From an uncultured Spirochaetota bacterium (GTDB lineage: Bacteria; Spirochaetota; Brevinematia; Brevinematales; JAOACQ01): DNA of 64,000 bases. Position numbers and translations under genes: made by a program. Each line of letters starts with the position of its first letter. Within the stretch, counting starts at the first letter, position 1. The notes under the pieces are model-generated. The model saw nothing but the letters and a program-made list of their open reading frames with translations, was not told the DNA's origin and did no database searches. This document shows, piece after piece, positions 30,184 through 62,269 of this stretch. The DNA lies in NCBI GenBank assembly GCA_963768055.1, contig CAVYGN010000002.1, positions 1,600,001 to 1,664,000 on the forward strand, given 5' to 3'.

Positions 30184-30317
30184 ATTCGGCTCCTTAGTTT
30201 TTATGATAAAGGGAGGTGATGAAATTTTCCAGTTTCCCTTCGAAATGACAATCCTTGTACAATATTTGATAGTTCGGGGGGCATGGATTATAATACTGGA
30301 ACGCATATTTTGTGTGT

Positions 30318-30405
30318 GGAGAGATGCCTGAGCGGTCGAAAGGGGCACCCTGCTAAGGTGTTGTACCCCATAAGGGTACCGCGGGTTCGAATCCCGCTCT
30401 CTCCG
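30318..30405 (+). tRNA. tRNA-Ser (anticodon GCT)
   Basis: Acceptor stem GGAGAGA/TCTCTCC plus discriminator G; anticodon arm GCACC-CTGCTAA-GGTGT; long variable arm; GGTTCGAATCC; CCA not encoded. Confidence 0.96.
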
Positions 30406-30551
30406 ATAGTTACCCTATCTCATTGCTGTAACTTCATACGGTGCAATGCATTTCGAGTTACCCATTCGACTCCCTCGACTGATACCATTTTGCCACCATT
30501 TTGATACGACCCGCTTCTGGAATAGCTGATTTTATTGGTTTGGAGGGCTAT

Positions 30552-37995: not shown

Positions 37996-38010
37996 AATAT
38001 TTTCCTCCTC

Positions 38011-39561: not shown

Positions 39562-40250
39562 TCATTCCCCTCCTGTGTGATTTCAAAAATTATATCACAT
39601 CAGGTGGGTCACTAAATACGCCGGGGGGTGGGTCACTTAAAGTGCCGATAGGTGGGTCGTTATTTTTGCCGACCCTGGGTCACTTGTGGTGCCGGATTGC
39701 AAAAGATATGGATAAAAAGAATATGGATAAAAGTGAAAATTATATGGGTTATATGGATTGAGTATTTATATATCTTATATATCTCTGTTGTTTGGATGTT
39801 TTTGTTTCTTATGGCGATGCCCTCGAAAGTGCAATGAAAGGGTGAGAATCGTGCCGGCGAGCTCCGGACTCCGCTTTCGCTACGGTACGCTTCGGGCGGG
39901 CCGGGGAAATAACACGGGGTAAACCCGCCCTCGCGCACTCGCGGCCCCAGAGGCTTAAATGGAAGCAGTATGGGCCGCAATCCTACGCATGCCTATCGCA
40001 TCACGTAGAGAAAGTATTAATTTTCATATAGTTGTGGAATTTAAAGAAGGTTTAGATTCGTCTAAAAGCCCTTGCCCCAGGCCAGAATTTTTCTGGGATT
40101 CTAAGACCTGTTTTGGGGAATTGGGGTTTCTTTATTGTTTGTAAGGGCTTTCGCATTCGCTCAAACCCTTGAGTTTTAATGTACGTGGGGTAGGGGGATT
40201 AAATCACTGGCTCTGATTTATCTATATGGATTAATGGAATTATTTTCATT

Positions 40251-43483: not shown

Positions 43484-43608
43484 GTTGAAACTCCGAAGTG
43501 AACAATATATATTTCTATTCAGATAAAGAAGTTATTATTGACAATTAAAGGATAATTTCAAGGTTTACATCTCCGATATTGATAAATTGACAGGACAAGC
43601 GAACCAAG

Positions 43609-44220
43609 TCATAAATCAAATGTTTTTTTTGGCTTCAATTCGTATCCAAGTAAATAATCTGTTGTAACATTAAATAATTCGGCGAGTTTATAAATAATAT
43701 CGGAGGGTGGAGTTTTATCACCTACCTCATAGGATGTTATTGTAGTTCTGTTCAAATTAAGACGTTTTGCAACATCGTCTTGACTAAGATTGTAAAGTTT
43801 TCTTAAATATCTGATTCTGCTACCTGTTGAGATTTTTTTATTTTGACAAAATTCTACGCTTTTTATAGCCGATTCAATTGTGATAATTATATTATCAATG
43901 TTACCACCTTTTTCACAGTAACTTTGTATATCTAATGTATCTAGGGTTTTTAAACCAGGAGCTTCATTACCGTAACCTGTAAGTAATAAAATATAGATAT
44001 CTTTATTGAACTTTCTTATTTCGTTTACTACCCATATGCCATCATGTTCGTCTATACGGTGATCGAGAATTAATATATCATAAAATTCATTTTTAATTTT
44101 CTCTATACCTTCCAGCGAACTCATAACACCATCAATATAGTATTTATCAGATAAAAAAGCTTTTATAGTATTTATAATAGCCGGGTCATCATCAATTACA
44201 AGTATGCGTATACCGTTCAT
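43609..44220 (-). CDS. response regulator with C-terminal Xre/Cro-C1 HTH
   Basis: ILVIDDD, ILILD, LLTG, EK; RIRYLRK..LSQDDVA..L.L.RTTITSYE...FNVTTDYLLG. Confidence 0.92.
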   Translation of the reverse strand: MNGIRILVIDDDPAIINTIKAFLSDKYYIDGVMSSLEGIEKIKNEFYDILILDHRIDEHDGIWVVNEIRKFNKDIYILLLTGYGNEAPGLKTLDTLDIQSYCEKGGNIDNIIITIESAIKSVEFCQNKKISTGSRIRYLRKLYNLSQDDVAKRLNLNRTTITSYEVGDKTPPSDIIYKLAELFNVTTDYLLGYELKPKKTFDL

Positions 44221-45446
44221 ATGCTTGCCACTCCTTTTGGTATTTTTATATAAAAACTTGTATGGTTATCATATGAATCATACGAAATTACCCCATTAAA
44301 CCGCCCGCGTATAATAGTTTGTGCTATATAAAGACCAATTCCAGTGCCTTTATTTCCTTTCGAGGTGCACATATTCACAAATAATTTTTTCCTAATATCT
44401 TCTGGTATTGGATTCCCTTTATTAGTAATTGCAATTATCAATTCATTTTTATTTGCTGTGACAGTCAAATCTATTATTTTGTCATTAGAAGCTTCCATTC
44501 CGTTCGTCAGAATTGTGTTGCAAACTTGAACTAGAGAATCGATATCGCCATTTATTATATAGTTTTTGCATTCAATATTTGTTTTTAAAATAATTTCATG
44601 AACCTTCAGTTCATAGTCCATAAGTAGAAGTATACGCTCTATCAAATCATTTATATTAAAACTGTTAATCTCCTTTTCTTTTACCTCTACGGTTATTGCT
44701 TGACCTTTGACCGCATTTATCACATTAGTCATATAAATGTTGTTGTTATTTATGAGTACTTTCCAATATTCCATCTGTCTCATGAGTAAATCCATAACCT
44801 TAGGGTCAAATGAATTCTCTTTATACAATTGATTAATTTTAGAAATACACTCGTTAATTACCCGTATTCCAGCACTTGAAGTCATTAGAGGAGTTTTTAG
44901 ATTATGAGCCACCCCACCAATAATCTGACTTAAAAATATGAGACGTTCGTTTTCGATTATCTGCTTCTGCCTTTCCTCAATTGCTATTATATCCTGCATA
45001 AGAATATCTTGAGATTCTACAACACGCGAGAATTTCTTATCACTGCTCTGATTGCCATTTATTATTTCTTCCTCATTCAGCCATTTTAAGGCTTTATCAA
45101 CAGAATCAAAAATTTTAATGTCATATCTTTTGGCTACAGCAAATATATTTTGGGCAATGATACGTTGTTCAGGACTATTTACCACTGTAGCACTGCGGTA
45201 TATAATTTTTGCGTTTGGATTTTGCAATGATAGTGCGATTTTTATAGTTACATCCCGACCAAAATCCCATCCAAAATCCTGTACATCAGTTAAAACTTTA
45301 ACTTTACCATTTTGAGCACCAACTCGGCCTATTAGCTCATATAATTCTCTGTAGGCATCGTTCAGTTGGCCGAGTGACATGGTTGTTCGATATTTGAAAT
45401 ATATTATCCCATCATCCCTTAGATGGCAAAGTTTTAACTTTCCCAT
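44217..45446 (-). CDS. soluble sensor histidine kinase with SpoIIAA/STAS-like input domain
   Basis: H-box AHNLKTPL, N-box ILTNGMEA, G boxes NKG and GTGIGL; no TM helix; input domain ends IFDSVDKALKWL. Confidence 0.88.
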   Translation of the reverse strand: MGKLKLCHLRDDGIIYFKYRTTMSLGQLNDAYRELYELIGRVGAQNGKVKVLTDVQDFGWDFGRDVTIKIALSLQNPNAKIIYRSATVVNSPEQRIIAQNIFAVAKRYDIKIFDSVDKALKWLNEEEIINGNQSSDKKFSRVVESQDILMQDIIAIEERQKQIIENERLIFLSQIIGGVAHNLKTPLMTSSAGIRVINECISKINQLYKENSFDPKVMDLLMRQMEYWKVLINNNNIYMTNVINAVKGQAITVEVKEKEINSFNINDLIERILLLMDYELKVHEIILKTNIECKNYIINGDIDSLVQVCNTILTNGMEASNDKIIDLTVTANKNELIIAITNKGNPIPEDIRKKLFVNMCTSKGNKGTGIGLYIAQTIIRGRFNGVISYDSYDNHTSFYIKIPKGVASI

Positions 45447-45940
45447 TATAACTTTCCTTTTTTAACAAAACTTTCAGGGATTTTTGTTTTCAATAACTCG
45501 TATAGATCGGGGGCTTCTTTTTCTATTCTGACTGGTCGTTTAACAGAATTAAGCCATACATGTGAACTTATGGCGGTGACGACAAGTTCTGAACTTTTTG
45601 CTTTTTCTAAATCTTCGGGTTTTAGAGTATTTGCTCCTTGAATTATATCAAAATTAACTCGTCTAACCTCATACTCAAAAGAGAATCGAAGGCTCTGCAT
45701 GTCTTTTATTTGTGTAAATATAACTATGTTATCATCAAAAAAAGCAGGCTTTTTATACTGGATGGAAAGATCGGTCACGATTATGAATATTCCACGTTTT
45801 TCCATCTCTGCATACGAGAACCCGTACTGTTTAATTATACTTGATCTAGCCAGTTCCAACCATGGCAAATAACTACCGTGATAAACAATGTTCTGTGGGT
45901 CGCATTCGGGATAGCGGACATTTAAACAATAAGTAAACAT
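45446..45940 (-). CDS. hot-dog-fold acyl-CoA/ACP thioesterase (YbgC/4HBT family)
   Basis: VRYPECDPQNIVYHGSYL.W.E.AR, YKKPAFFDD. Confidence 0.9.
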   Translation of the reverse strand: MFTYCLNVRYPECDPQNIVYHGSYLPWLELARSSIIKQYGFSYAEMEKRGIFIIVTDLSIQYKKPAFFDDNIVIFTQIKDMQSLRFSFEYEVRRVNFDIIQGANTLKPEDLEKAKSSELVVTAISSHVWLNSVKRPVRIEKEAPDLYELLKTKIPESFVKKGKL

Positions 45941-46131
45941 TTTCACAACCTCACGATTTTTAAACACTTAATTATAACTTTTTTAATGAATATGTCTAAA
46001 AATTTCAACAAATTTGAAAAAATATTTTCAAATATTATTGACATTTAAAATAATGCAACATATTATATAATAATGTCTGTATTCATGGCATTTTTGCGAT
46101 AATTGTTATAATAATTTGCACAATTTAATTC

Positions 46132-46534: not shown

Positions 46535-47233
46535 ATGAAAAATAATCGTATTATTATTGGAATCATTGATAGTGGTGTCGACAGAAGGTTTATTATTGAA
46601 AATGGTGCTAAAATTAAAAAAGCGTCCGCATTTAATATAATACAAGAAAGCCGACTTGTAGAGTGTATTGAATATAGTAAAAAAGATATAAAAAAATGGC
46701 TAGCTGGAAAAATCGATCATATATCGGATGAACATGGCCATGGGACTTCTGTTCTTTCTATAATTTGGGGAATTTTACCCAATGCTGAATTCGTGGTTTC
46801 AAAGGTTCTTGACCATGAAAAAAAAGGATATTCGATATGCCTTGTAGAAGCGCTTCGTTGGATGATAGAAAAAACTGATGTCCTTATAATAAATATAAGC
46901 ATTACGACAAATGATACAAATATTAAGGATGATATGTTAAAACTTGTCAAAGAAGCAAAAAAGAAAGGTATAGTTATATATTCAGCGAAAGATAATGAAT
47001 ATAGTATACCTGCTTCTGTTGATGGTGTTGTTTCAGTAACTGATTTTTTAACAATAAATAAAGTCGGGCAATATTCTCTACTAAAATCGGACGTTGTAAT
47101 TGAAAAAAAGGAAGAATTAATTTGGTGGGAAGGCGAATGGATTCAAGATCCTATTAAACCAAGTTGGGCTTGTGCAGTAGCTGTTTCTAAAAAGTTTGAA
47201 ACTGGACATAATTTTAAAAAGAGATTTGTATGA
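46535..47233 (+). CDS. compact cytoplasmic S8 (subtilisin-like) peptidase
   Basis: IIDSG (Asp), DEHGHGT (His), IINIS, PSWAC (Ser); no signal peptide. Confidence 0.8.
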   Translation: MKNNRIIIGIIDSGVDRRFIIENGAKIKKASAFNIIQESRLVECIEYSKKDIKKWLAGKIDHISDEHGHGTSVLSIIWGILPNAEFVVSKVLDHEKKGYSICLVEALRWMIEKTDVLIINISITTNDTNIKDDMLKLVKEAKKKGIVIYSAKDNEYSIPASVDGVVSVTDFLTINKVGQYSLLKSDVVIEKKEELIWWEGEWIQDPIKPSWACAVAVSKKFETGHNFKKRFV

Positions 47234-49134
47234 AAAATAAAAATTTAAATTTACCATCTACATTCGTTTTAAAAAATTATACTTCTAAATATTATTTTGA
47301 TATTAATGCATTATTTTGGAACAGTTTATTCTCAGAAAAATATTTAACTAAAATTTTTCAAGAAATCAAACTTAGAAACAAAATAACAGATTTTGAGGAA
47401 ATTTATTTTGATTATCTTATTGTTAATATTTCAGCTATAAAAAGTATGATGTCTGATTGTTATGTCTATAAATATCTTGAAAAAAATGTCTATTTATGTT
47501 TTAAAGTATTCTATTTGATAGTAAACATATTTAACCTAATTAGTTCAGATCATAGAATTTCCTTGTCCTATGGAATATCTTACTTAAAAGATATCAGTAA
47601 TATTTCTTTAAGTATAAATAATATTTTTATAAATCAATTTTTTGATGATATACTGAATAACAGCTTTTTTGAAGATAATATTCAATATAATATAAATATT
47701 CATTGGGAAAATGAATTATATAGTTTAATTCTTTTATCTATTAAATTACGTGAAAAATTTAAAAATGTTAGAGTTATAGTGGATTTCAGTCAAGTAAATG
47801 AACAGGTAGATTTTACTCAATGGATTTCTAATAATAATATCAGACAATATATAGATAACTTTAATAATATATATCATGAAGATAATCATAAAATTATTAA
47901 TGCTAATTATCATATTGGTGACGTGTTTAAAACAAAAAATATAGGGACTAGATTATTCAATACAAAGTGTTATTGGAATAAATGTTCTTTTTGTACAATA
48001 AATTCAAGGCACAAATCTGATCATACTTTTAATTCATTAACAAAAGAAGCAAAAGAGATTGTTGATAGCTTTATTAAAAGTATTTTAAATTATAATGAAT
48101 TAATTTATATAACTTTTTCTGATGAAGCTATTGAAAGTTCAATATTATTATATTTTGCGGAGCAAATTATAAACCAAAACATTAATATAAAATGGATTGC
48201 AAGGACAAGATTTTCTAATATTTTTACTTATGAAAACTGTAAAACATTATCTCAATCTGGATTGAAAATGATTGGTTTGGGTCTAGAGTCTGTTAATCCG
48301 AGAATATTGAGTCTTATGAATAAAAGAGAAAAATTCTATGATACTCAAGAATTGAATCGTATTATTGGTAATTTCGACCAAAATAATGTAAGTGTACATA
48401 CATACTTTATTATTGGTTTCCCATCTGAAACGAAAAAAGAAACCAAGCAAACACTAAATTTCATTGATTATAATCTCAAAAAAAGAAAGTACTTTACATA
48501 TTCAGCTAATAGGTTTTATCTAATGAAAGGGTCGAAAATTTATAGTAATCCGAAGGAATTTGGAATTGAAATAATCGATAAAGGTGAAGATGTTAAAATA
48601 GGTAATATCAATTATATTGATCAAAATAAAGGTCATAAATACAGCAGAGAAGAAATATTATTTTTGTCTAAGAAAGCTTATTCGAAAATGTTTTTTAAAA
48701 AAGTTAATAACAATTATTTAATTATATTAGGATGTAATTTCTGGGATTTTATTGATAGAACAGCATTATTTTATATTCATAAATATTACAATGAATTGAA
48801 TCCTTATTTTAGAAGAAATAAAAAAAGGATAAAACTTCATGATGAAGATCTTGATTCATTTTATAAAATTATCAGCATTCCTATTTATAAATTAAATCCT
48901 TTGATATATTTTGATATTATTAATGATAGATATATTAGGATTAAAGAAATATTAAAAAATCTTTTTTATAAGTTTATTAATTCTTATAACACAAAATTAA
49001 CACTCAGACAGAATATTTATGAAATATTACAAAAATTAGATTATAAATGTTCTAATAAGCAAATTAATTTATTTAATAAAATGATAATTCAATTAATTGA
49101 TGATGCATACTTGTATAGGATTGAAAAATTGTAA
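47230..49134 (+). CDS. radical SAM protein, B12-dependent-class-like core
   Basis: CYWNKCSFC, FSDE, GLESVN.RIL.LM.K, IIGFPSET; overlaps the peptidase stop (ATGA). Confidence 0.85.
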   Translation: MKNKNLNLPSTFVLKNYTSKYYFDINALFWNSLFSEKYLTKIFQEIKLRNKITDFEEIYFDYLIVNISAIKSMMSDCYVYKYLEKNVYLCFKVFYLIVNIFNLISSDHRISLSYGISYLKDISNISLSINNIFINQFFDDILNNSFFEDNIQYNINIHWENELYSLILLSIKLREKFKNVRVIVDFSQVNEQVDFTQWISNNNIRQYIDNFNNIYHEDNHKIINANYHIGDVFKTKNIGTRLFNTKCYWNKCSFCTINSRHKSDHTFNSLTKEAKEIVDSFIKSILNYNELIYITFSDEAIESSILLYFAEQIINQNINIKWIARTRFSNIFTYENCKTLSQSGLKMIGLGLESVNPRILSLMNKREKFYDTQELNRIIGNFDQNNVSVHTYFIIGFPSETKKETKQTLNFIDYNLKKRKYFTYSANRFYLMKGSKIYSNPKEFGIEIIDKGEDVKIGNINYIDQNKGHKYSREEILFLSKKAYSKMFFKKVNNNYLIILGCNFWDFIDRTALFYIHKYYNELNPYFRRNKKRIKLHDEDLDSFYKIISIPIYKLNPLIYFDIINDRYIRIKEILKNLFYKFINSYNTKLTLRQNIYEILQKLDYKCSNKQINLFNKMIIQLIDDAYLYRIEKL

Positions 49135-49276
49135 CTTATATAATAATAAATAATAAAATTAAACGTAAAAACATATTAATTGACATTATGATTGAAAATT
49201 TTACAAACCTTATAAAGTTAAGATTTTTATTAATGAAATTCCCGGTTGGAGATAAAATAGGTAAAAAGGAGTATTT

Positions 49277-49516
49277 ATGAAGAAAAACCCTGTCAGGTTT
49301 TATGACATTCCTGAGTCATTAAAGGAAATTTATGCTCTTGGTTCTGGTAGCGGTAATAGTGGTTCTGTAGCAGGAGATTGTTGTTCTGTTACTAATACAA
49401 CTTCTACTTGTGGTTGTGTTGGCTGGATGGCAAGTGCTAATACAACTTGCCAGACTAATACTTTTTCCTCTGCATCATTCTTTAAGAAACCACCCGCAAA
49501 AAGAATAATTAAGTAA
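49277..49516 (+). CDS. putative RiPP precursor peptide (79 aa, 5 Cys, Ser/Thr/Gly-rich)
   Basis: AAGGAG RBS; charged leader, GS linker, core DCCSVTNTTSTCGCVGWMASANTTCQTNTF, basic tail; lies between radical SAM genes. Confidence 0.82.
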   Translation: MKKNPVRFYDIPESLKEIYALGSGSGNSGSVAGDCCSVTNTTSTCGCVGWMASANTTCQTNTFSSASFFKKPPAKRIIK

Positions 49517-49585
49517 TATCTTAAAACAATAATTTCAAGTTAATTATCTCCAGCTGGGAAAATTATATTAAAGAGAGAAAAGAAT

Positions 49586-50695
49586 ATGAAATATACAATA
49601 ATATTAACTCAAAAGTGCAATCTAGCATGTAAATACTGTTTTGAACATAATAAAGAGAATAATTATCTTAAAGAAAATATGATACCTTCAATCTTAGGAT
49701 TTATTAATTATTATCAAAATCAAGAATTTGTTTTAGATAAAAATATATCGATAGTTTTTAATGGCGGAGAACCACTTCTTAATTTTACAGTATTAAAAAA
49801 ATTACATATTGCTTTGGAAAAAATTGGTGTTAACGATTTTTCGATTTCTACAAATTTAACATTATTAACAGATGAAATTATTACTTATTTATATAATAAC
49901 AAGTTTATTTTACATATTAGCCTTGATGGAACTAAAGATATTCATAATAAAAACAGAATCTTCAAAGATGGAAAAGGAACATTTGATATTGTTTATAATA
50001 ATGTTGTGAAAATTAGGAAAAAATATCCTGATTGGAATAATTCATATAATATTACAATTTCTCCAGGCACTGTACATGATTTATATAATAGTTTTAGATT
50101 ATTAACAGATTTGGGTATAAGGAGAATTACAGCTGCATATTGTGCGGATTATGAAATGAATGAAAATAATATAGAAATATTCAAAAATGAAATGAGAAAA
50201 ATTAGTAAGGATTATATTGCTTTCTATGAAAATAATGAAAATATCTATTTTAAATTTTTAACCGATGGTATTTTATACACAATAAATAATAAAAAAGCAG
50301 CATGTGGAGTATGTAAGAGCGAAATTGCTATATTACCTTCAGGTGAAATATTGCCATGTGTGGTTTTTGTTGGACAAAATAATTATAGAGATTACATTTT
50401 AGGTACTTTGAATAGTTCATTGAATTATAATAAAATTAATATGCTTTTAGATAAGAAATTATTTAATTTGTCTGAATGTAATAATTGTAGTTTACTTCAA
50501 AGATGTTTTGTTGAATGTTATGCGGTAAACTTAAGAGTTATGGGGAATTTATTTGATATACCAGATTGCTATTGCCATATCAATCAGATTTGTTTACAAG
50601 AAGCTGAATATGTTATTAATGATTTATATAATAAAAAGAATAAACTATTTATTAATCAATATAATCTTAGCAAATTAAATAAAGAATCAATTTAA
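49586..50695 (+). CDS. radical SAM/SPASM peptide maturase
   Basis: CNLACKYC, FNGGEPLL, ISLDG, SPASM CG..GEILPC..CNNC.....CFVEC...CYC. Confidence 0.9.
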   Translation: MKYTIILTQKCNLACKYCFEHNKENNYLKENMIPSILGFINYYQNQEFVLDKNISIVFNGGEPLLNFTVLKKLHIALEKIGVNDFSISTNLTLLTDEIITYLYNNKFILHISLDGTKDIHNKNRIFKDGKGTFDIVYNNVVKIRKKYPDWNNSYNITISPGTVHDLYNSFRLLTDLGIRRITAAYCADYEMNENNIEIFKNEMRKISKDYIAFYENNENIYFKFLTDGILYTINNKKAACGVCKSEIAILPSGEILPCVVFVGQNNYRDYILGTLNSSLNYNKINMLLDKKLFNLSECNNCSLLQRCFVECYAVNLRVMGNLFDIPDCYCHINQICLQEAEYVINDLYNKKNKLFINQYNLSKLNKESI

Positions 50696-50714
50696 AATTA
50701 ATTGGGGAAATAAT

Positions 50715-51836
50715 ATGTATGGATTAATATTAACTGAGAGTTGTAATATGTCATGTAAATATTGTTTTGAAAAACATAAAAATTATGGTCGACAAATGAA
50801 TGATGAAATAATTATTAGTGCTGCTGATTATATTGTTAAAGACTATATAAATAAAGGTAAAGAAGATTATTTTGTAGTTAATATTACAGGTGGAGAACCT
50901 TTCCTTAAATTTGATCTTTTGAAAAAATTATTACTAGAAATAAAAGAGAAAATGAGTATTAATAAAATTAAGCAATATTCGTTTGAAATATCAACAAATG
51001 GTACAATAATAAACGAAGGTATAATAAAATTTATTATAAAAAATAATATTAGATTATTTGTTGGATTCGATGGTATTAAAAAAAGTTATAATGAAGGGCG
51101 TTTTTTTAAAGACCAACCAGGTGTTTATAATATTGTTTATAAAAATATTTTAATATTAAAAGAAAAGGTGAATAAAAATAATATTGTTTTGAATCTGGTT
51201 ATTACTCCAGAGAATGTACAATATTTAAATCAAAATATTAATTTTATGTATATTCTTGACTTACAAATGTCAATTACATTTGCTTATGAACAAGAGTGGA
51301 GTGAGAAATCTATTGTAATATTGAGAAAAGAGTTTCTAATATTTCTTAATTTTTATAAAGATATTGTTAAAACAAATCATGATTTTAGTATTGGATTAAT
51401 TGATAAAACTATAAAACAATGTTTATTTCCTCGTAATTATTATCCTGGTATATGTAGTGCTGCAGAACCCCAACTTGTTATTTTGACTGACGGCAACATT
51501 GTACCTTGTGGCAGTTTTTGTTATATACAGGATAATAATACTGATTTTATTATTGGAAATGTATTTCAAGGAATAGATGAGAATAAACGTTTAAAATTCA
51601 GAAAGTCATTAGAAAATATAGATTTTGAGGAATGTAAAGGTTGTTTATTTATAAATAAATGTACTAATTACTGTACTGCCATAAACTATCTTGTAACAAA
51701 TAATACTCAAGAAATACCAAGTTCTGTTTGTGAAATTAATAAAATATTGATTACCGGATGTGAATTATTAATTGATAATTTGACTAAAGAAAATAGTAAC
51801 TATATAAAAGAGAAATATTTAAAAGAGGTTGATTAA
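50715..51836 (+). CDS. second radical SAM/SPASM peptide maturase
   Basis: CNMSCKYC, TGGEP, STNG, SPASM CSA..GNIVPC..CKGC.....CTNYC...C. Confidence 0.9.
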   Translation: MYGLILTESCNMSCKYCFEKHKNYGRQMNDEIIISAADYIVKDYINKGKEDYFVVNITGGEPFLKFDLLKKLLLEIKEKMSINKIKQYSFEISTNGTIINEGIIKFIIKNNIRLFVGFDGIKKSYNEGRFFKDQPGVYNIVYKNILILKEKVNKNNIVLNLVITPENVQYLNQNINFMYILDLQMSITFAYEQEWSEKSIVILRKEFLIFLNFYKDIVKTNHDFSIGLIDKTIKQCLFPRNYYPGICSAAEPQLVILTDGNIVPCGSFCYIQDNNTDFIIGNVFQGIDENKRLKFRKSLENIDFEECKGCLFINKCTNYCTAINYLVTNNTQEIPSSVCEINKILITGCELLIDNLTKENSNYIKEKYLKEVD

Positions 51837-54179
<2,343 letters not shown>

Positions 54180-54257
54180 TAAAATACAATGATATCTTAA
54201 TGGTAAAATTATTTAATTTGTTGATTTGGAATAAATATTTAAGGAATTGGAGGCTAT

Positions 54258-54761
54258 ATGTTGGATTTGGCTTATTTAAATATTGGAACTTTGAAACAAT
54301 TGTATATGCAGTACATCAAAAAAAATGAAAATAAGTATTATTTGATTGACTTCTTTAGTAACTACGATATTCAAATCGATCCAAATGATTGGAATCGAAT
54401 TCAATATGTTAGTAAAGATTTTAACGGTAATATCATTGCTTATTTTGAAGCAAGAATAAATCGAGGATTTAATATTATTAATGATTTAGAAATATTAAAA
54501 TTTATTGAATATCCCAATATAATATGGATTCATGATTTTATCAGATTTCTCAAAGTGTTATTGCTTGAAAAAAACTTCAGAAAAGTGGTTTTTTATGCTA
54601 TCATAGACAACCCATCTTTTACAAAATGTGAACTATATTTATTGAAGTATAAATTGGTTAAAGAAGTTGGTGTAATGAAAAACCATTGTATTCTTAATGA
54701 TGGAAAAATTTATGATATGAAAATTTTTGAGATTGAAAGAGATAATTTAGGAAAATGGTAG
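54258..54761 (+). CDS. GNAT-family N-acyltransferase (RimJ/RimL-like)
   Basis: GNIIAY, NFRKV.F....NP, EVG.MK.H..L.DGK.YD..IFEI; GGAGG RBS. Confidence 0.8.
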   Translation: MLDLAYLNIGTLKQLYMQYIKKNENKYYLIDFFSNYDIQIDPNDWNRIQYVSKDFNGNIIAYFEARINRGFNIINDLEILKFIEYPNIIWIHDFIRFLKVLLLEKNFRKVVFYAIIDNPSFTKCELYLLKYKLVKEVGVMKNHCILNDGKIYDMKIFEIERDNLGKW

Positions 54762-54767
54762 AAAATA

Positions 54768-55541
54768 ATGATTTTTAATATTTTATTAAAACTATCAATA
54801 AGAAATCTTTTTCGTCATAAAACAAAGAATCTGCTCGTTGTCCTTATGATCATGACGGGCTGTTCCCTGTTTTTTATAGCTTCCTCGCTTGAATGGAATA
54901 TCAGGGATAACTGGAGGCATTACCTTTCAGATACGGTCTTGGGAGATTACTATATAACTTCGATAACGGGGATCGGCGACGATTACCGTTTTTTTAACAC
55001 TGTCCCGCCGCTGAAATTTATCAATAAGGAAATTATTGATTTTCTCGACAGGAATAAAATTCAATATTCATGCAGGATAAGGACCGGGGCAAAGTATTAT
55101 GATGAGAAGCTCGGGTTTCGGGATTTCAACAAATTCCTCGGTATAGATTTTTTAAAGGAGGAAAAGATCCTCTCCAATATATTGATTTATGACGGCACAT
55201 TCGAACCTGCCTCAGATAACGGCATGGATTTTTTCTGGAATCCTTCCTGGAATTATCAGCCGCCGGTCGGGACAAACCTTGTGGTATTAATTCTTGCACT
55301 TGCCGGATATCTGATTGGTGTATTCATCGGTGCTTTGTCAGGCAGTATAATTGAAAATATGCGGATATACCTGGTGTTCCAGGATTATATGAACGGACCT
55401 GTAATGTTCATTCATTCCTTTTGGGATTTTCTCTACATACTGCTGTTCATATTATTACTGACAGCGGTTTGGAGCATTCCGGTAATTAACCGGATCGTCT
55501 CGAAAGCCCCCGCGAGGGTATTCAGGGAACAATCGTATTAA
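54768..55541 (+). pseudogene. FtsX/MacB-type ABC permease, internally deleted
   Basis: Typical N-terminus LSIRNLFRHK.K and partial periplasmic domain joined directly to the last TM helices; 257 aa versus the usual ~400 or more. Confidence 0.6.
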
Positions 55542-55552
55542 TTGGAGTATTT

Positions 55553-56326
55553 ATGAAGAATTGGATTTTACTTATTACAGCGGCAGTATTAACGGCGGTC
55601 TATTCATTATCTTATTGTATCGATCCGGGCGATGTTATTTCTAAATCCGATAAGCGATTTATACCGGATATATTCACTTATAACATGACCCTCCGGACTA
55701 CTTCGGCAAACGGCAAGATTGATGTAGTGGATTATAAGGGGAAAAAGAAACACGAAAATAATATAATGATCACAATAAATCCGGTCAGTGCAAGGGGGCA
55801 GGTCAACCTGAAAAACAGGAACGTGATATGGAGTTACTTTCCTACCTCGGATACAAGTATAAAGTATAGCTACCAGGCAATAATCCTGGGGACGTCGGTA
55901 AGTTACGGCGACATCCTGGCGCTTGAGCTTTCCCGCGATTATGACGTCCGGTCGATGATCGAAACCTCGAGCCTCGAAACCAATGGCCTCGAGGATCCGG
56001 CCTCGACGAATAAGTTTTATCTGCTGACGCTTGGGCCTAAAAAAGATGTCGACGGATATGCGAAAATATTTTTGTGGATAAATACGGCGAACTTTCTGCC
56101 TGTTAAGAGGCAGTACTACGCTTTATCCGGGCTCCTGGTGAAATCCTGCGAGATACAGGGTATTTCCTTCGATGATAAAGGCGTTGTAAGCGAGTGTAAA
56201 GAACTGTTTTATGAACCCCTGAAACAAAAGCAAACCCTGGTAACCTTTTCCAATGTTATTATTATGAGTGATATTCGCGATAAGACATTCAATCCGAAAG
56301 CTATGAAATTTTTCAGCGGAGAGTGA
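55553..56326 (+). CDS. outer-membrane lipoprotein-sorting (LolA-like) protein
   Basis: Signal peptide; IWSYFP, ILGT.VSYGD, Y.LTL.PK..Y.KI.LWI...FLP.K..YY..SG.L.K. Confidence 0.78.
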   Translation: MKNWILLITAAVLTAVYSLSYCIDPGDVISKSDKRFIPDIFTYNMTLRTTSANGKIDVVDYKGKKKHENNIMITINPVSARGQVNLKNRNVIWSYFPTSDTSIKYSYQAIILGTSVSYGDILALELSRDYDVRSMIETSSLETNGLEDPASTNKFYLLTLGPKKDVDGYAKIFLWINTANFLPVKRQYYALSGLLVKSCEIQGISFDDKGVVSECKELFYEPLKQKQTLVTFSNVIIMSDIRDKTFNPKAMKFFSGE

Positions 56327-57579
56327 ATTTGATTAAAATTTCAATCTTTATCCTTCTGCTTTTTCTTCCCATGGAGCTATTTTCATTGGATATAAGCTCA
56401 GTCATAAACACCGGTTTCGATGTTCAATCGGTTAACAGCAATTCGCTGCTTTACCCGCTGAATTTGCTTCAGAGCGGGGGTTACACGAACGAGGGCTTCG
56501 ATTACTATGTCAATGCCGATGTAATAATGAAAAGCGCGATGGGCGAGATCGGGAAGGGTTATCTGGATGTCAGATTCAGTTATTATCCGAAAACATTTCT
56601 TACAAATACCCCCTGGCAGTATTTTAATATTGTTGAGGGTTATGCTGACCTGGCGACCGAGGACTTTTTGCTGCGCATAGGGAAGCATTTCATGCACTGG
56701 GGCGATGGGGTCGCTTTTAATCCCGTCGATATAGTGGATTTGAGAAAAGATCCCCTGTCATATACCGGATATGACCAGGGGAAGCCGGGGGCTGATATAA
56801 CGGTTCCCATAGGTGATTTCAGTTCTTTTTCAGCTTTAAGCGTTGTCGACAGCACATTAACTACGAACATTGACAATCTGCCTGCCATATTGCAATATTT
56901 CTTATCGATAGATATGTTCGACGGGTTTATATTCGCCGATTTTCAGAAGAATTACAAGCCCGAATATGGCGGCAACATCGATTATGTCATGTCTGTAAAA
57001 AATAATATAAATTTAAAACTATATTCCCAATTAACCTACAGAGAGGACAGCTACCGTGAGTTCGCCGCCGAAACGAATGGAGTTCCGTACCTTGAAAATA
57101 TGACCAACAATTACTACGCTGCCTGGGCTGTAGGCGGTAATCTTACCTTTTCTTTTACAGAGACGCCGTTGATCGACGGTATAATAATTTCCGCCGAATA
57201 TTATTACGATGACGAGAACTGGAGCAAAAACGCTTATCAGAATTTCCTGTCGTATATAGATGCGCAGACGAATAATAATAATGTTCCCGCATATATGAAC
57301 GCTATGCTGCAGGAGCAATACCTCAGGAATTCTAAAAGCTATTTTTTTTCAGCGCTTACTTTCCAGGGGCTGTTTGATAAAGATTTCAGCCTGACCGGTT
57401 CTGTGGTCCTTAACATTGACGATCTGAGTTTTGTAATTTATCCCTCGATGTCGTATCAGATCAACCTGGATACCAGGATATCGATAGGAGCCCAGTTTTT
57501 TTGCGGCGGCCAGGACAGCGAATTCGGCAGTATGTCGCAGCTTTTTTCCGTAAACGCCAATTTAACGGTTTCATTTTGA
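56323..57579 (+). CDS. putative outer-membrane beta-barrel protein
   Basis: EGYAD..LRIGK...WG.G..FNP.D, SEFG, C-terminal LTVSF. Confidence 0.65.
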   Translation: MNLIKISIFILLLFLPMELFSLDISSVINTGFDVQSVNSNSLLYPLNLLQSGGYTNEGFDYYVNADVIMKSAMGEIGKGYLDVRFSYYPKTFLTNTPWQYFNIVEGYADLATEDFLLRIGKHFMHWGDGVAFNPVDIVDLRKDPLSYTGYDQGKPGADITVPIGDFSSFSALSVVDSTLTTNIDNLPAILQYFLSIDMFDGFIFADFQKNYKPEYGGNIDYVMSVKNNINLKLYSQLTYREDSYREFAAETNGVPYLENMTNNYYAAWAVGGNLTFSFTETPLIDGIIISAEYYYDDENWSKNAYQNFLSYIDAQTNNNNVPAYMNAMLQEQYLRNSKSYFFSALTFQGLFDKDFSLTGSVVLNIDDLSFVIYPSMSYQINLDTRISIGAQFFCGGQDSEFGSMSQLFSVNANLTVSF

Positions 57580-57595
57580 AACAAAGGAGCATCTC

Positions 57596-58266
57596 ATGAT
57601 TAAAATCAGTGGTGTAGAAAAGACCTATTATCTTGGAAAATCTACGATCGAGGCGTTGAAGGGAATAAATGCAGCTTTTAATAAAGGCGAATTTACATCC
57701 GTGGTCGGGCCGTCGGGCAGCGGAAAATCCACGCTGCTTAACATTATAGGCTGCCTTGACAGGCCTGATCGGGGAGAGGTAGTAATAAGCGGTGAAAATA
57801 TTACCTCTTTAAAAAGCAACAGGCTTGCCGATATCAGGGCCGAAAAGATAGGCTTTATATTTCAGTCCTTTAACCTTATACCTGTCCTAATGTATATGAA
57901 AATATCGAGCTGCCTTTGAATAATATTAATAAATACAAATCGAAAAAGGAAAAGAGGGACAGGATCATAGAACTCATAGAGCATGTAGAGCTTGGCTGTT
58001 ATTTAAAGCACAGGCCTGAGGAGCTTTCAGGAAGCCAGAGGCAGCGCGTGGCTATCGCCAGGGCCCTGGTTACGAATCCTGAAATAGTCCTTGCCGACGA
58101 ACCGACGGCAAACCTCGATTCTGAAACAGGCAGGATGATAATAGAACTCATGAGAAAGATCAACAGGGACTACGGCACTACATTTATATTTTCAACCCAT
58201 GACTTGAATATAATGAAATATGCCGAAAGAGTGTTAAATCTAAAGGATGGAAGAATTTTTAACTGA
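57596..58266 (+). pseudogene. LolD/MacB-type ABC ATPase with 1-bp frameshift
   Basis: GPSGSGKST; one missing A near 57889 breaks IPVLNVYENIELP; second half has LSGSQRQR, LADEPT, STHD. Confidence 0.85.
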
Positions 58267-58309
58267 TATTTAATATGGTTTCATAACATAATTAAAAAGA
58301 GGTATTTCT

Positions 58310-58843
58310 ATGCTAGAACTAGCATACTTAAATCAAGAAAAGTTACAAGATATTTATTCAAAAAGGATTACTTCTAAATTTAATAAGTATTATTTTTTTG
58401 AAAGTTATTATGATTATATTTTACCAATTGACCAAAATGATGAAAAAAAAATACAATACGTTGGAAAAGATAATGAAGGCAATATAATCGGCTATGCAGG
58501 TGCATGGATTAATCGTACTCATAATATTATTGAAAGGATGGAAATAATAAATTTTACAGAAAAGCCAAAATTAGAAGGATCAAGGAATTTATTTGATTTT
58601 CTAGAAATTATTCTTATCAAAAAGAATTTTAGAAAAATTGTTTTTTATGTGGCTGTAGAAAATCCAGCTATTAAATTGTATGAGAAATTCATGAATTTTG
58701 GAGAAGGAATAGGGAAAAAAGTTGGTATTTTAAAAGAACATTATACTCTAAATGATGGAAAGAATCATGATGTTGCTATATTTGAAATTTACAGGGAAGG
58801 TTTTACAGAATGGTTTAGAAAAAAAATAAAAAAAGACTTTTAA
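58310..58843 (+). CDS. GNAT-family N-acyltransferase (paralog of 54258-54761)
   Basis: MLELAYLN vs MLDLAYLN; IQYV.KD..GNII.Y; ENPAIKLYEK; VG.LK.H..L.DGK. Confidence 0.82.
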   Translation: MLELAYLNQEKLQDIYSKRITSKFNKYYFFESYYDYILPIDQNDEKKIQYVGKDNEGNIIGYAGAWINRTHNIIERMEIINFTEKPKLEGSRNLFDFLEIILIKKNFRKIVFYVAVENPAIKLYEKFMNFGEGIGKKVGILKEHYTLNDGKNHDVAIFEIYREGFTEWFRKKIKKDF

Positions 58844-58911
58844 TTAAAAAGATTGAAAAATAGAGAATAAAATATTTTGGATTTTTTTAGATAAAAAAGA
58901 GGAGGATTTTT

Positions 58912-59172
58912 ATGATAAAAGAAGATTTCAAAAACATTAATGAATTAATATTTGAACTAAAGAAAATGATTTCAAGTCAAATCAAATTACAAGGAGAAGA
59001 TTTCGATGAAAATAAGGATTTTGTCTCCGACTATGGAGTAGATTCTCTTGATTTGCTTTTATTGATTTCGGAAATAGAAGATATTATGAAAGTGAGAATC
59101 GAAACAGAAGATGCTGAAAAGATGAGGACTTTTGCAGATGTAAGAAAATATGTTGAGAGTAAATATTTATAA
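58912..59172 (+). CDS. acyl carrier protein
   Basis: Acidic 86-aa protein with GVDSLD phosphopantetheine site; GAGGAGG RBS. Confidence 0.92.
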   Translation: MIKEDFKNINELIFELKKMISSQIKLQGEDFDENKDFVSDYGVDSLDLLLLISEIEDIMKVRIETEDAEKMRTFADVRKYVESKYL

Positions 59173-59236
59173 ATATATCGAATAGTATATAAAGAATGTA
59201 TTATCAAAATATAAAAAATAAAGAGTAAATAATATT

Positions 59237-60448
59237 ATGAGAGTTTATGTTGGTAGTCTGGGTATAATTGTTTCAAATGGGAAAAATATTCTTGATTTCA
59301 GCAATAATATATTTGCCGGGAAATCTGGGATTAAAAAGTTGTCCAATGATGATTACTCTGATATTCCTGTTAGGATTGGAGGTGAAATTATAAATGATTG
59401 GCTTAAAGATTCCGATCTTTCTGAAGAAAGATCTTGGACATTATTGGAAATTGCTGCAGATGAGGCTATAAAGATACAAAAAAATAAAATCTTTAAGTTA
59501 GAATCAGACAGGATAGGTGTTTTTGTTGGGACATCATATGCTGGATCAAATACTATACTAGAGAATTATAAGCATTATTTAAATAAAGAAATATACAAAG
59601 TTTCTCCGTTGACAATGATTAAAGCTATGCGATATTATGCTGCCAGTAATTTAGCCAGAAAATATAAAATCGAAGGTCCCTTACTGGCTTATGATACAGC
59701 TTGTTCTTCTTCACTTCATGCTTTAGGCAATGCTTATAAAATGATTCATTCAAATTTGTTGGATTTAGCTATAGTTGGAGGGGTAGAAACACCACTAACA
59801 CCAACAAGTATCATATGCTGGGACCGTTTACGGATTTTGGCTAATAATGAAGATAATCCGGATAAAGCCTCCTCTCCTTTTGATAAAAAAAGTCCTGGTA
59901 TTGTGTTGGGTGAAGGAGCGGGTGTTATAATCCTTCTAAGTGAGGATGTTATGAATAAAATGGATATTCCACCTTTGGCTGAAATTGCAGGATATGGCTA
60001 TTCTAATGATCCAACGCACATTACTAAATCTAATTTTAAATATATGATAAAATCTATGCAAAAAGCATTATCAGATTATCCCGGACTCAAAGATACAATT
60101 AATTATATTCAAGCTCATGGTACGGGAACTAAGATAAATGATATGGAAGAAGCAAGAGCGATAAATACATTATTTGGTAATCAATCTAATAATATTAAGG
60201 TTAATTCAATAAAATCAATGGTTGGCCATTTGCTTGGCGGCAGCGGAATAATTTCGGCAATAACTACTATTATACAGATTAAGGAAAAGAAATTACACCC
60301 TAATCTAAATCTTGAAGATCCATATAATGATTACCAAATTAACTATGTTGGGGCAAATAAGGAAAGTTGGAATATATGTGTGGGCATTGTAAATGCATTT
60401 GCATTTGGTGGAAGCTTTGCTTCGATATTGATTAAGTATGTGAACTGA
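59237..60448 (+). CDS. beta-ketoacyl-ACP synthase II-like ketosynthase (FabF-like)
   Basis: Cys-His-His triad TACSSS, AHGTGT, KSMVGH; NAFAFGG. Confidence 0.93.
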   Translation: MRVYVGSLGIIVSNGKNILDFSNNIFAGKSGIKKLSNDDYSDIPVRIGGEIINDWLKDSDLSEERSWTLLEIAADEAIKIQKNKIFKLESDRIGVFVGTSYAGSNTILENYKHYLNKEIYKVSPLTMIKAMRYYAASNLARKYKIEGPLLAYDTACSSSLHALGNAYKMIHSNLLDLAIVGGVETPLTPTSIICWDRLRILANNEDNPDKASSPFDKKSPGIVLGEGAGVIILLSEDVMNKMDIPPLAEIAGYGYSNDPTHITKSNFKYMIKSMQKALSDYPGLKDTINYIQAHGTGTKINDMEEARAINTLFGNQSNNIKVNSIKSMVGHLLGGSGIISAITTIIQIKEKKLHPNLNLEDPYNDYQINYVGANKESWNICVGIVNAFAFGGSFASILIKYVN

Positions 60449-60472
60449 ACCAAAATGAAATTAGAATAATAT

Positions 60473-62269
60473 ATGAAATTAATAGCGATAAATAAAAAAG
60501 ATTGGCCCCTGATAAAAAGAGCATTTAACTATGTTAAACCGAATAAATTCAAATTTGCATTTTCTTTTTTCCTTCTACTTGTAGGAATTAGTTTTAATTT
60601 AATTCTCCCTTACTTATGGGCAAAAATTATTGCCTGTATTTTTAATAAAGATTATAATACTTTAATATTTATTGTAATCTCTATTACTATTGTACTAATA
60701 ATACAATCTATATATGGGCTTTTACAAAATTATGTTTCAACTTCATTATATCAAGAAATAGTTTACAATGTCAAAAAAGACATGTACAAAAAAATTTTAG
60801 ATTTACCTATGAAAGCATTTGATCAACTACGTGCAGGTGATTTTATTTCAAGGTTACAAGGTGATGCAAACACAATTTCTCAGGTTATTACAGGACAATT
60901 CTTAAACTCGGTTGTTGACGTATTAAAAATAATAACATTTGGAATAGCTGTTTTCTGCATTAACCTGCCCATGGCGATAATGCTTTTAATAACTTTTCCT
61001 TTGTCATTAATTGTATTTATTAAATTTGGCAAGCTTATGCGAGAGAAAAACAAGGAAATGGCAGAAATGAATGATAATTATTTTAGCAATGTACATCAGT
61101 CAATAACTGGTATAAGGGAAATAAAGGGATTGGGAATTAAAAATCAAAATTACTTGACTTTTATATCATTATTAAAATTGATGAAAGAAAAAGTTATTAA
61201 CATAAACATCTTTGGAGGAATATCCCAGCTTATTACACAGACTTTCAACTACATTTCAGAAATTGGGGTGATAATTGTTGGAGCATATCAAATATACAAA
61301 GGTTTTTTAAAAATAGAGTTCTTCATAACTTTTACATCATATTCTATTCAATTTTCTGAATCAATAATGAATATTAGTAATTTAAATAATAATATTCAAC
61401 AAGCAATGACTTCTTTAGAAAGAATATTTGGTATTATGGATAATTTGAATTATCAGGAATATAATTATGGAAATTTGAATTTAAAAAACATTGAAGGAAA
61501 TATAAAATTTGATGGTATTACATTTGGGTATAATGAAAACTCGAATATTTTGAATAATGTTTCTTTTGAGATCCAGAAAAATAAAAAAATAGCTATTATA
61601 GGAAAAAGTGGTAGTGGAAAATCAACAATATTTAACCTTATACAAAATTTTTATAAACCTCAATTGGGAAAAATTCTAATTGATGACATAGAACTCAATA
61701 AATTAAGTGAAGATTGCTTAAGGGAACATATTTCAATAGTCAGGCAAGAACCTTTCCTTTTTAATTTATCAATTAAAGATAATTTGTTACTTGTTAATCC
61801 AACTGCTAAAGATGATGATGTAATTAACGCTTGTAAATTAGCTTTTATTCATGAATATATTTCAAATTTACCTGAAGGCTATAATACTTTAGTACAAGAT
61901 GGTGGAGCAAATTTCTCGGTAGGGCAAAAGCAAAGGATAGCTATTGCTAGAGTTTTATTGAAAAATACAAAAATAATATTATTTGATGAAGCAACTTCTT
62001 CATTAGATAATGAATCTCAATATTATATTAAAAAGGCCATTGACAATCTTTCATTAAATCATACGGTAATAATTATTGCCCATAGATTACTAACTTTTAT
62101 TGAAAGTGATGAAATAATTTTACTTGATAAAGGAATTATTGCCGGTATTGGCAATCATTCAACTTTGATTAAAAATAATGAAATCTATAATTTGTTATAT
62201 CATATGGAATTGGATACTTATAATAAAAGTCAAAATCTTTCTTTGTTAAAAGATGTCAACACTTTTTAA
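60473..62269 (+). CDS. ABC exporter, fused permease and ATPase
   Basis: Six-TM domain; GKSGSGKST, FSVGQKQR, FDEATSSLD, IAHRL; no N-terminal C39 peptidase domain. Confidence 0.93.
   Translation: MKLIAINKKDWPLIKRAFNYVKPNKFKFAFSFFLLLVGISFNLILPYLWAKIIACIFNKDYNTLIFIVISITIVLIIQSIYGLLQNYVSTSLYQEIVYNVKKDMYKKILDLPMKAFDQLRAGDFISRLQGDANTISQVITGQFLNSVVDVLKIITFGIAVFCINLPMAIMLLITFPLSLIVFIKFGKLMREKNKEMAEMNDNYFSNVHQSITGIREIKGLGIKNQNYLTFISLLKLMKEKVININIFGGISQLITQTFNYISEIGVIIVGAYQIYKGFLKIEFFITFTSYSIQFSESIMNISNLNNNIQQAMTSLERIFGIMDNLNYQEYNYGNLNLKNIEGNIKFDGITFGYNENSNILNNVSFEIQKNKKIAIIGKSGSGKSTIFNLIQNFYKPQLGKILIDDIELNKLSEDCLREHISIVRQEPFLFNLSIKDNLLLVNPTAKDDDVINACKLAFIHEYISNLPEGYNTLVQDGGANFSVGQKQRIAIARVLLKNTKIILFDEATSSLDNESQYYIKKAIDNLSLNHTVIIIAHRLLTFIESDEIILLDKGIIAGIGNHSTLIKNNEIYNLLYHMELDTYNKSQNLSLLKDVNTF

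Follow-up and report, generated by a model that had tools for sequence, protein, structure and literature searches.

A candidate radical SAM peptide cluster with its own acyl carrier protein and ketosynthase in an uncultured spirochaete

Several of the RiPPs (peptides made on ribosomes and then modified post-translationally) are acylated by enzymes of the GNAT family; those named in the literature are the lipolanthines, goadvionins, lipoavitides, selidamides and aphotorhaptins (PMC13647313). Hybrids of RiPP genes with fatty acid synthase (FAS) or polyketide synthase (PKS) genes have been described as rare (PMC8842026; bioRxiv 10.1101/2023.10.25.564083), and there is precedent for acylation by a GNAT and a FAS/PKS following removal of the leader (PMC13647313; PMC8842026; lipoavitide preprint, bioRxiv 10.1101/2023.10.25.564083). 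The present work concerns a gene cluster at positions 46535–62269 of a 64,000-nucleotide stretch of DNA, hereafter the window, from an uncultured spirochaete of the Brevinematales (GCA_963768055.1, contig CAVYGN010000002.1, positions 1,600,001 to 1,664,000). Judged from its genes, the product is very probably a RiPP with radical thioether rings. That this is a mobile RiPP cluster whose thioether-crosslinked peptide would be acylated from a dedicated acyl carrier protein (ACP) is the reading that we prefer, and we put its probability at about even.

The cluster is a single plus-strand run of 16 open reading frames (ORFs) with intergenic gaps of -4 to 142 nt, which bears out the co-oriented run claimed by an initial annotation of the window. 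Pfam matches were obtained for Peptidase_S8 (gene starting at 46535), Radical_SAM (47230, 49586 and 50715), SPASM (50715 only), GNAT (58310), PP-binding, ketoacyl-synt, and the membrane and ATPase domains of an ABC transporter. The gene labels of the initial annotation are upheld by Pfam and NCBIfam, but it had overlooked five ORFs between the two GNAT genes (54768–58266). The absences that it reported, of a lanthipeptide dehydratase or YcaO and of ketoreductase (KR), dehydratase (DH) and enoyl reductase (ER) genes, were confirmed, none of the lanthipeptide, YcaO, KR, DH or ER families being matched among the 22 ORFs scanned with Pfam and NCBIfam.

As judged from gene order, the cluster is a real conserved unit. 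A genome from another genus of the same family (G008, the genome of the window being G000) carries every cluster gene in identical order, at 30–86% identity and with the export cassette intact, which is more than chance would be expected to give; there the cluster occupies another insertion site, flanked by hydE-like genes on one side and aspA/hydF-like genes on the other (labelled from their sequences). In a set of 401 genomes from the phylum, only G000, G008 and G159 had close matches (E value <1e-70) to the pair of radical S-adenosylmethionine (rSAM)/SPASM enzymes, weaker ones being found in 12 other genomes, and full-length matches to the class-B rSAM enzyme were confined to G000 and G008. 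G159 represents a minimal relative, with only a GNAT, a peptide, the rSAM pair, a hydrolase, HlyD and an ABC protein. The two full clusters have in addition the S8 peptidase, the class-B rSAM enzyme, a second GNAT, an ACP, a ketosynthase (KS), a Lol-like cassette and a Lys-rich tail on the precursor. On gene content the locus is two joined, separable modules, one of GNAT, peptide, rSAM pair and hydrolase, the other of ACP, a distinct KS and the Lol-like cassette.

Comparison with described peptide systems

Lipolanthines, goadvionins and lipoavitides likewise combine RiPP and FAS/PKS genes in one cluster, and theirs is an N-terminal fatty acylation by an acyltransferase. The cluster-encoded FAS/PKS and acyltransferase of the lipolanthine type are matched here by an ACP, a KS with the Cys-His-His residues and two GNAT-fold proteins. 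The ring enzymes of that type, in contrast, are ionic (lanthipeptide synthetase, AviCys decarboxylase), whereas among the 22 ORFs none of these was matched, only rSAM enzymes; the window also differs in its single ACP and KS, in another GNAT subfamily and in its Lol-like exporter. Selidamides share fatty acylation of a peptide by a GNAT, for which the Lys-rich tail of the window peptide is a possible acceptor, but they employ host fatty acids, a class II lanthionine synthetase and an arginase (PMC13647313), and no LanM or arginase match was found here. Aphotorhaptins are rSAM-crosslinked RiPPs with an N-terminus acylated by a GNAT (PMC13647313). They differ in that the group is acetyl, according to the title of the primary paper, and in what was available on them there is no sign of a dedicated ACP or KS. 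New beyond the aphotorhaptins would be the thioether rings and the dedicated ACP/KS donor. Aphotorhaptins are daropeptides, and daropeptide chemistry is not of the Cys-thioether kind.

Ranthipeptides and sactipeptides resemble the window in having rSAM/SPASM enzymes with CX3CX2C and auxiliary Cys residues beside a Cys-rich precursor, together with an S8 peptidase and an ABC exporter (PMC9389541; PMC10731318; PMC9413430), and the trait of an adjacent Cys-containing precursor with a conserved leader is present here. The NxxC motif is shared with the substrate family of NxxcB (PMC9389541). The window differs from these classes in two enzymes without a RiPP recognition element (RRE), in its GNATs and in its true ACP and KS, and every family cut-off was missed. 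The best NCBIfam match of both enzymes was the PapB family (NF047865), with 177.6 bits for enzyme 1 and 177.4 bits for enzyme 2 against a cut-off of 340, and no Asp or Glu stands four residues after any Cys of the precursor. The CXXX-repeat system (TIGR04115) also has a pair of RRE-less rSAM enzymes beside a Cys peptide; here the scores were 106.7 and 127.8 against 350 bits, no repeats with Cys at every fourth residue were seen, and both enzymes keep CX3CX2C. For the maturation locus of quinohaemoprotein amine dehydrogenase, QhpD was the second-best family of enzyme 1 (134.4 of 453 bits) and QhpE the best match of the S8 peptidase (58.8 of 165 bits), with no matches to the dehydrogenase subunits.

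The likeness to clostridial Cys-rich-peptide loci of the CcpM type (gene set in table 3 of PMC10731318), drawn in the initial annotation, did not hold. The scores for TIGR04068 were 116.1 and 108.3 bits against a cut-off of 500; the carrier protein is a true ACP with 12 NCBIfam matches, none of them TIGR04069; and the ACP-related protein TIGR04069, TIGR04066 and a CLI_3235-type peptide were all unmatched at an E value of 0.001 or less. We were unable to find, in a mostly open-access literature, any thioether-forming rSAM RiPP with a dedicated ACP/KS, which agrees with the earlier remark that the combination was not recognised as a characterised class. The words 'acyl' and 'ketosynthase' are absent from the main text of a compendium of rSAM RiPPs (PMC10288494), the supplements of which could list these enzymes, and a literature search on spirochaete RiPPs returned no relevant paper.

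Precursor, radical SAM enzymes and GNAT family

The 79-aa ORF at 49277–49516 (+) is very likely the precursor, because its leader is conserved, its Cys-containing core varies and the gene is surrounded by a 17-bp stem. It is predicted to comprise a leader of about residues 1–21, a Gly/Ser linker, a core with five Cys (35, 36, 45, 47 and 58) and the motif NxxCxxN, and a tail with four Lys. It had no NCBIfam match (E value ≤0.001), and a homology search of 5.8 billion proteins returned only the peptide itself; the one known relative is the 82-aa peptide of G008 (36% identity), which retains the leader (V6, Y9, LKEI, L21-G22), N55, C58, N61 and the tail positions and is variable in the core.

The stem consists of a 5' arm at 49239–49255 (+) and a 3' arm at 49544–49560 (+), which enclose the gene. 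Duplexes of the flanks outscored shuffled sequences at all five precursors compared (window, G008, G159, G550 and G007; z -3.2 to -5.5), and in no case did more than 1 of 200 shuffles reach so low a value. Neither the 12 other genes of the window that were compared (z no lower than -2.1) nor six precursors from other loci of family f22 gave such a result. The arms are unlike in sequence between genomes. Among 1,522 free-standing small ATG ORFs of the genome, the precursor alone has a stem of at least 17 bp with at most two G-U pairs, a threshold taken from the precursor itself. The stem may mark an RNA segment that is processed or stabilised, and no report of stems enclosing precursor genes was found in the mostly open-access literature. 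Across the five genomes the inverted repeats are of 12–20 bp and unrelated sequence (window 49239–49560; L010 2110–2490; L021 8460–8800; L102 14230–14590; L118 16980–17250), and they are usable as a precursor finder.

Two rSAM/SPASM enzymes follow, enzyme 1 of 369 aa (49586–50695, +; CX3CX2C at residues 11–18; 46% identity to G008 and 38% to G159) and enzyme 2 of 373 aa (50715–51836, +; PF04055 and PF13186; CX3CX2C at 10–17; 37% and 34%, respectively). Both retain the auxiliary cysteines, and both begin at the CX3CX2C motif and therefore lack an N-terminal RRE. NxxcB forms a Cys-Asn beta-thioether (PMC9389541). The NxxC motif is present in both full-cluster precursors and absent from the G159 and G550 peptides, so that as a clue to the ring it is only a lead. 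At each of the three complete peptide loci the rSAM pair is followed by a Tiki/ChaN/EreA-like hydrolase with a PDZ end (780 aa; 51837–54179, +; weak PDZ match), whose GExH, LFLE, RD and HG motifs are kept in three orthologues. Of the exported hydrolase of the initial annotation, the Tiki/ChaN-like core was substantiated (Atlas 0.94), while export, which is probable, was read only from an N-terminal hydrophobic stretch seen by eye.

Upstream of the precursor, the S8 peptidase (232 aa; 46535–47233, +; PF00082, E value 9.9e-10; 67% identity to G008) includes the Asp12 and His69 motifs and a candidate Ser210 in the atypical context PSWAC. No signal peptide was seen by eye, and the protein is likely a cytoplasmic leader peptidase. 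The class-B, or B12-like, rSAM enzyme (634 aa; 47230–49134, +; PF04055; 58% identity to G008) carries the CX4CX2C motif shared across its family, and about eight relatives align over most of its length. Its structural model (pLDDT 86.8) is closest to AprD4 (Z 14.9) and MgmA (Z 14.1), with RimO/MiaB and TsrM also among the folds, and it aligns from residue 1 to AprD4, MgmA and TsrM (Z 13–15, rmsd about 5). Class-B methylation is not assured, because no B12-binding Pfam family was matched and because of the nature of these closest folds. The fold neighbours of the model also include CysS and TokK, and the weak NCBIfam matches of the enzyme include the lipid enzymes TIGR04072 and HpnJ. Its C-terminal domain (about 544–631) is modelled by DSSP as three strands and three helices, the layout of RREs; an RRE there found no support in Pfam or the PDB, and PF05402 was unmatched in the cluster. 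The domain is possibly leader-binding.

The two acyltransferase candidates are GNAT1 (167 aa; 54258–54761, +; 68% identity to G008) and GNAT2 (177 aa; 58310–58843, +; PF00583; SpeG/RimJ-RimL fold), which keeps Asn118 and Tyr124. GNAT1 has no Pfam match and was recognised through its 43–44% identity to GNAT2. The modelled fold is shared with the CoA-dependent GNATs (for GNAT2, Foldseek E value 1.8e-10 to SpeG; VIA Z 15.7), but the loop Q/R-x-x-G-x-G/A that binds the CoA pyrophosphate is absent from this family: EHQGKGFA of SpeG aligns to ekpniifs, and the loop is missing in 10 aligned members; neither GNAT1 nor GNAT2 has it. In both GNAT1 orthologues a Cys (Cys124 in the window protein) stands where the other six aligned sequences of the family have a Tyr, which we take to be the general acid of SpeG. 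Altered P-loops are reported to be characteristic of carrier-protein-dependent GNATs, and GdvG is acyl-carrier-dependent (PMC11685415). By analogy, the loss of the P-loop fits an acyl-ACP donor, but it is family-wide. Prediction of a complex of GNAT1, GNAT2 and ACP gave a median of 0.28 against a mark of 0.32, which counts neither way.

The family is present in 14 of the 301 f22 genomes, two of these marginally; scans elsewhere gave one locus in genome contigs, one in a metagenome, none in viral contigs or plasmids, and one orphan gene in phages. Outside G000 and G008 there are 16 GNAT-family loci, seven with an rSAM/SPASM match and 12 with a small peptide ORF, a C39-type exporter or both next to them (ORF lists by eye; several genomes are close kin), the exporter being named from what is presumably the C39-type start motif. 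None of the 16 has an ACP or a KS in the 2.5–35 kb around it, several of these stretches ending at contig edges. Because of these peptide and exporter neighbours and the lack of ACP/KS, the GNAT appears to belong to the peptide module and to be older there than the ACP/KS. The P-loop-less GNAT marks many peptide-export loci of f22 (L021, L025, L026, L102–L112, L121), and G590 has two tandem rSAM-peptide clusters with the family. In G550 the first rSAM gene is shortened, apparently by an insertion element. A metagenome fragment (L012 878–2476) holds a QhpE-like short S8 peptidase, a pentapeptide-repeat-like ORF and a member of the GNAT family (48%), and is probably a further related cluster; in G305 (L023 10343–14150) the GNAT lies upstream of radical SAM, agmatinase-like and phosphotransferase-like genes (labels other than rSAM by eye), a non-peptide context.

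Seven of the 13 loci with weaker rSAM/SPASM matches (G019, G013 twice, G070, G148, G002 and G015) proved on reading to be different systems. G019 (L049 6320–11346) and G015 (L055 10038–14551) contain arrays of up to seven paralogous 175–215-aa ORFs directly upstream of an RRE-less rSAM enzyme; they share a basic/aromatic leader and a hydrophobic stretch and may represent an rSAM-modified lipoprotein system. The same type of ORF occurs singly or paired in G013, G070 and G148 (L050, L051, L052, L054). In G002:C23 (L053 8717–11985), a CXXX-repeat-like peptide system with paired rSAM enzymes and a 107-aa protein was seen by eye.

Carrier protein, ketosynthase, export genes and genomic setting

The ACP (86 aa; 58912–59172, +) matches PF00550 at 40.2 bits, over the cut-off, and has the DSL attachment serine (Ser45). 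The FabF-like KS (59237–60448, +) retains Cys-His-His and is 33% identical to the host FabF, from which five proteins including it are separated as a clade with a support of 100/100 (20 rows). This clade was found in 3 of 391 genomes. At all four of its loci with context an ACP lies directly upstream, with an rSAM enzyme and an FtsX-FtsX-LolA-barrel-ATPase cassette, and three of the four (window, G008:C3 and G007) add to this an rSAM/SPASM enzyme and a Cys peptide whose gene is flanked by a stem. The G007 system is otherwise unrelated, with a longer rSAM/SPASM enzyme, a 33-aa peptide, an M50 protease and a 433-aa ORF after the KS that matched neither PF03279 nor the PDB; its locus (L118 1083–19271, G007:C2) also has three paralogous secreted-looking proteins of 311–317 aa and a Lol-like cassette. 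The fourth locus, G008:C57, includes an ACP, a KS (66%), a Lol cassette, a shorter class-B-like rSAM enzyme, an epimerase-like protein and a 251-aa ORF before the ACP; an ABC exporter and a CHASE2 protein also occur there (L100 7082–20000 and L101), and it ends near a tRNA-like sequence. Host genes for a phosphopantetheinyl transferase, FabD and five other ACP-like proteins were found. A second fatty-acid/polyketide cluster (G000:C1, about 477300–494000) has four KS, two ACP, a thioesterase and a LolA-like gene, with reductase-like, ligase-like and ammonia-lyase-like ORFs (some labels by eye).

Two export systems accompany these genes. Downstream of the KS is an MsbA-like ABC exporter without a peptidase domain (60473–62269, +; Pfam and NCBIfam; 74% identity to G008). 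Between the GNAT genes lies the Lol-like cassette (54768–58266, +), whose five ORFs comprise an FtsX-like remnant of fused permeases, a LolA-like protein (PF17131), a protein predicted to form a barrel and two parts of an ABC ATPase that is interrupted by a frameshift. Positions 54792–58241 are 96–98% identical to an intact cassette elsewhere in the genome (C2:422175–427449), relative to which there are a 1692-nt in-frame deletion fusing both permeases, a 1-nt frameshift at 57888 and a 132-nt difference at the barrel start. The remaining changes are mostly silent (11 silent and 2 non-silent codons, and 13 and 7). GC content is 42% in the cassette part but 25% elsewhere in the cluster. The AT-rich first and last codons are retained, from which we infer that the cluster's original cassette was most likely overwritten by a resident-type copy. 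In G008 the cassette is intact with two FtsX genes. G001, which belongs to the genus of G000, carries it at the murB/fliL-type site of the resident copy, and peptide genes are absent there (labels read from sequences). One short-read contig bridges the right junction (58241) with zero mismatches, coverage of the cluster by such contigs being patchy. The biosynthetic genes are full length relative to G008.

The genome as a whole has 41.5% GC, and the cluster sits in a low-GC island with integrase remnants which begins at a tRNA-Ser (30317–30406, +). The last 16 nt of this tRNA are repeated about 65 kb downstream (G000:C2 1695957), a possible, weak right attachment site. Within the island, an insertion element at 37148–39701 has transposase and ATPase ORFs, 51-nt imperfect inverted ends and two further 99.9% copies in the genome; beyond the window, the island holds an 874-aa restriction-modification-like fusion (L003 5078–7702) and a 591-aa radical SAM-HD domain fusion (L003 10573–12348), both read by eye. 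Divergent from the cluster is a run (41141–45967, -) of a thioesterase, a SpoIIAA-like/histidine kinase, a receiver-HTH regulator and a TonB-dependent receptor, 56–68% identical to paralogues on C1. Its first gene is the 4HBT thioesterase (45446–45967, -; Pfam and NCBIfam), which the initial annotation had linked to the cluster: it is present and divergent, but neither it nor the kinase, regulator or receptor was matched around the four related clusters tested (G008:C3, G008:C57, G159 and G007), and it probably lies outside the pathway. A promoter scan gave 142 sites against 116 ± 11 by chance and was set aside.

Proposed pathway and its alternatives

The proposed pathway has six steps, the first two well supported and the other four inferred. 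The precursor would be read from an RNA segment closed by the stem, probably processed or stabilised for high output, and the two RRE-less rSAM/SPASM enzymes would bond the sulphurs of Cys residues to positions close by; a Cys-Asn beta-thioether, as in NxxcB, is suggested by the conserved NxxCxxN. The class-B-like rSAM enzyme would make a further radical modification, such as methylation, either of the peptide or of an ACP-bound chain, and the cytoplasmic S8 peptidase would cut the leader near L21/G22. On the dedicated ACP, an acyl group primed by the host would be extended by the dedicated KS, for which host reductases would be needed, and a P-loop-less GNAT, perhaps GNAT1 through Cys124, would transfer the chain either to the N-terminus left by leader removal or to a tail Lys. 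The MsbA-like exporter and the FtsX/LolA/barrel cassette would then export the lipidated product; in this genome the intact resident copy of the cassette would have to stand in. Acylation from the cluster ACP is suggested because all the additions of the full clusters, from the S8 peptidase to the Lys-rich tail, stand atop the G159 design, and also because export by way of a lipid carrier would be apt for a product that bears a lipid.

Several observations weigh against this proposal. On synteny, which the initial annotation took as a test of its hybrid reading, the outcome is divided: all genes occur together in G008, but in G159 the peptide module (GNAT, peptide, rSAM pair and hydrolase) occurs without ACP/KS, and once, at G008:C57, the ACP/KS occurs without the SPASM pair, such a GNAT or a stem-flanked peptide, on a contig that ends about 140 nt upstream. 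Given this separability, acylation from the cluster ACP is plausible but is not implied by the gene list. Nor does the loss of the P-loop single out the cluster ACP, since it is family-wide, the family extends to phage proteins, and the other GNAT loci are without ACP/KS. KR, DH, ER and a loading enzyme are absent from the cluster, no RRE was confirmed anywhere in it, the serine motif of the S8 peptidase is atypical, and this genome's copy of the export cassette is damaged. The core of the precursor is poorly conserved (five versus four Cys) and has no PapB-type Cys-X3-Asp. Because only two full clusters are known, both in one family, their synteny may reflect a single transfer.

The same separability, with the peptide module alone in G159 and G550 and the ACP/KS module alone at G008:C57, would also be expected if two pathways shared one operon: a crosslinked peptide with generic GNATs for N-acetylation, host-pool acylation or self-immunity, and a separate small lipid made and exported by the ACP, KS, class-B rSAM enzyme and Lol cassette. 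The lack of ACP/KS at the 16 other GNAT loci agrees with this, as do the weak lipid-enzyme matches of the class-B rSAM enzyme and its fold neighbours CysS and TokK, which act on pantetheinylated substrates. However, GNAT2 directly precedes the ACP and KS, genes of the two modules alternate in both full clusters, G007 has this KS clade beside an unrelated rSAM-peptide system, and the class-B enzyme of the full clusters has a three-strand/three-helix C-terminal domain which the shorter C57 enzyme lacks; on balance we consider two pathways unlikely, if far from negligible. The constant position of the hydrolase after the rSAM pair (3 of 3 complete loci) and the QhpE and QhpD matches recall QhpC, the crosslinked subunit of quinohaemoprotein amine dehydrogenase. 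The peptide could accordingly serve the exported Tiki-like enzyme as a crosslinked subunit or as its cofactor, with any acyl chain anchoring the complex, but this is improbable: the scores are far under cut-off, the core is hypervariable, the enclosing stem suggests an excess of peptide, and the hydrolase, only 28–31% conserved, could instead be a peptidase for maturation or immunity. That island genes came together by chance, or that the assembly is at fault, might be suspected from the low-GC island with its integrase remnants and from the central 3.4 kb that is a near-copy of another locus; the identical gene order in G008 largely refutes it, the changes in the copy are mostly silent and a short-read contig spans one junction, so that this is hardly credible.

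Returning to acylation from the cluster ACP, we regard the hybrid cluster as real and rare, a variant of the RiPP-fatty-acid hybrids that stands a fair chance of forming a class of its own. In its fullest form, which we advance tentatively and at somewhat below even probability, that class would unite radical Cys-thioether rings with a tailored acyl chain from a dedicated ACP/KS, a P-loop-less GNAT pair with a Cys relay and its own LolCDE/LolA/barrel-like route, as a portable lipidation cassette with stem-marked precursor genes. The class-B-like rSAM enzyme would possibly edit the chain on the ACP, and one spirochaete family would have joined the ACP/KS/Lol unit to two or more rSAM-peptide systems that are unrelated and differ in their acyltransferases.

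A stem search picks up precursors missed by homology searches, and the intact G008 cluster and minimal G159 locus form a natural pair, with and without, for the question of acylation. The RiPP-fatty-acid hybrids known from the accessible literature have ionic ring chemistry and come mostly from actinobacteria and cyanobacteria. If the proposal is true, this phylum would contribute both a new family of acyltransferases and a compact way of making gene-encoded lipopeptides.

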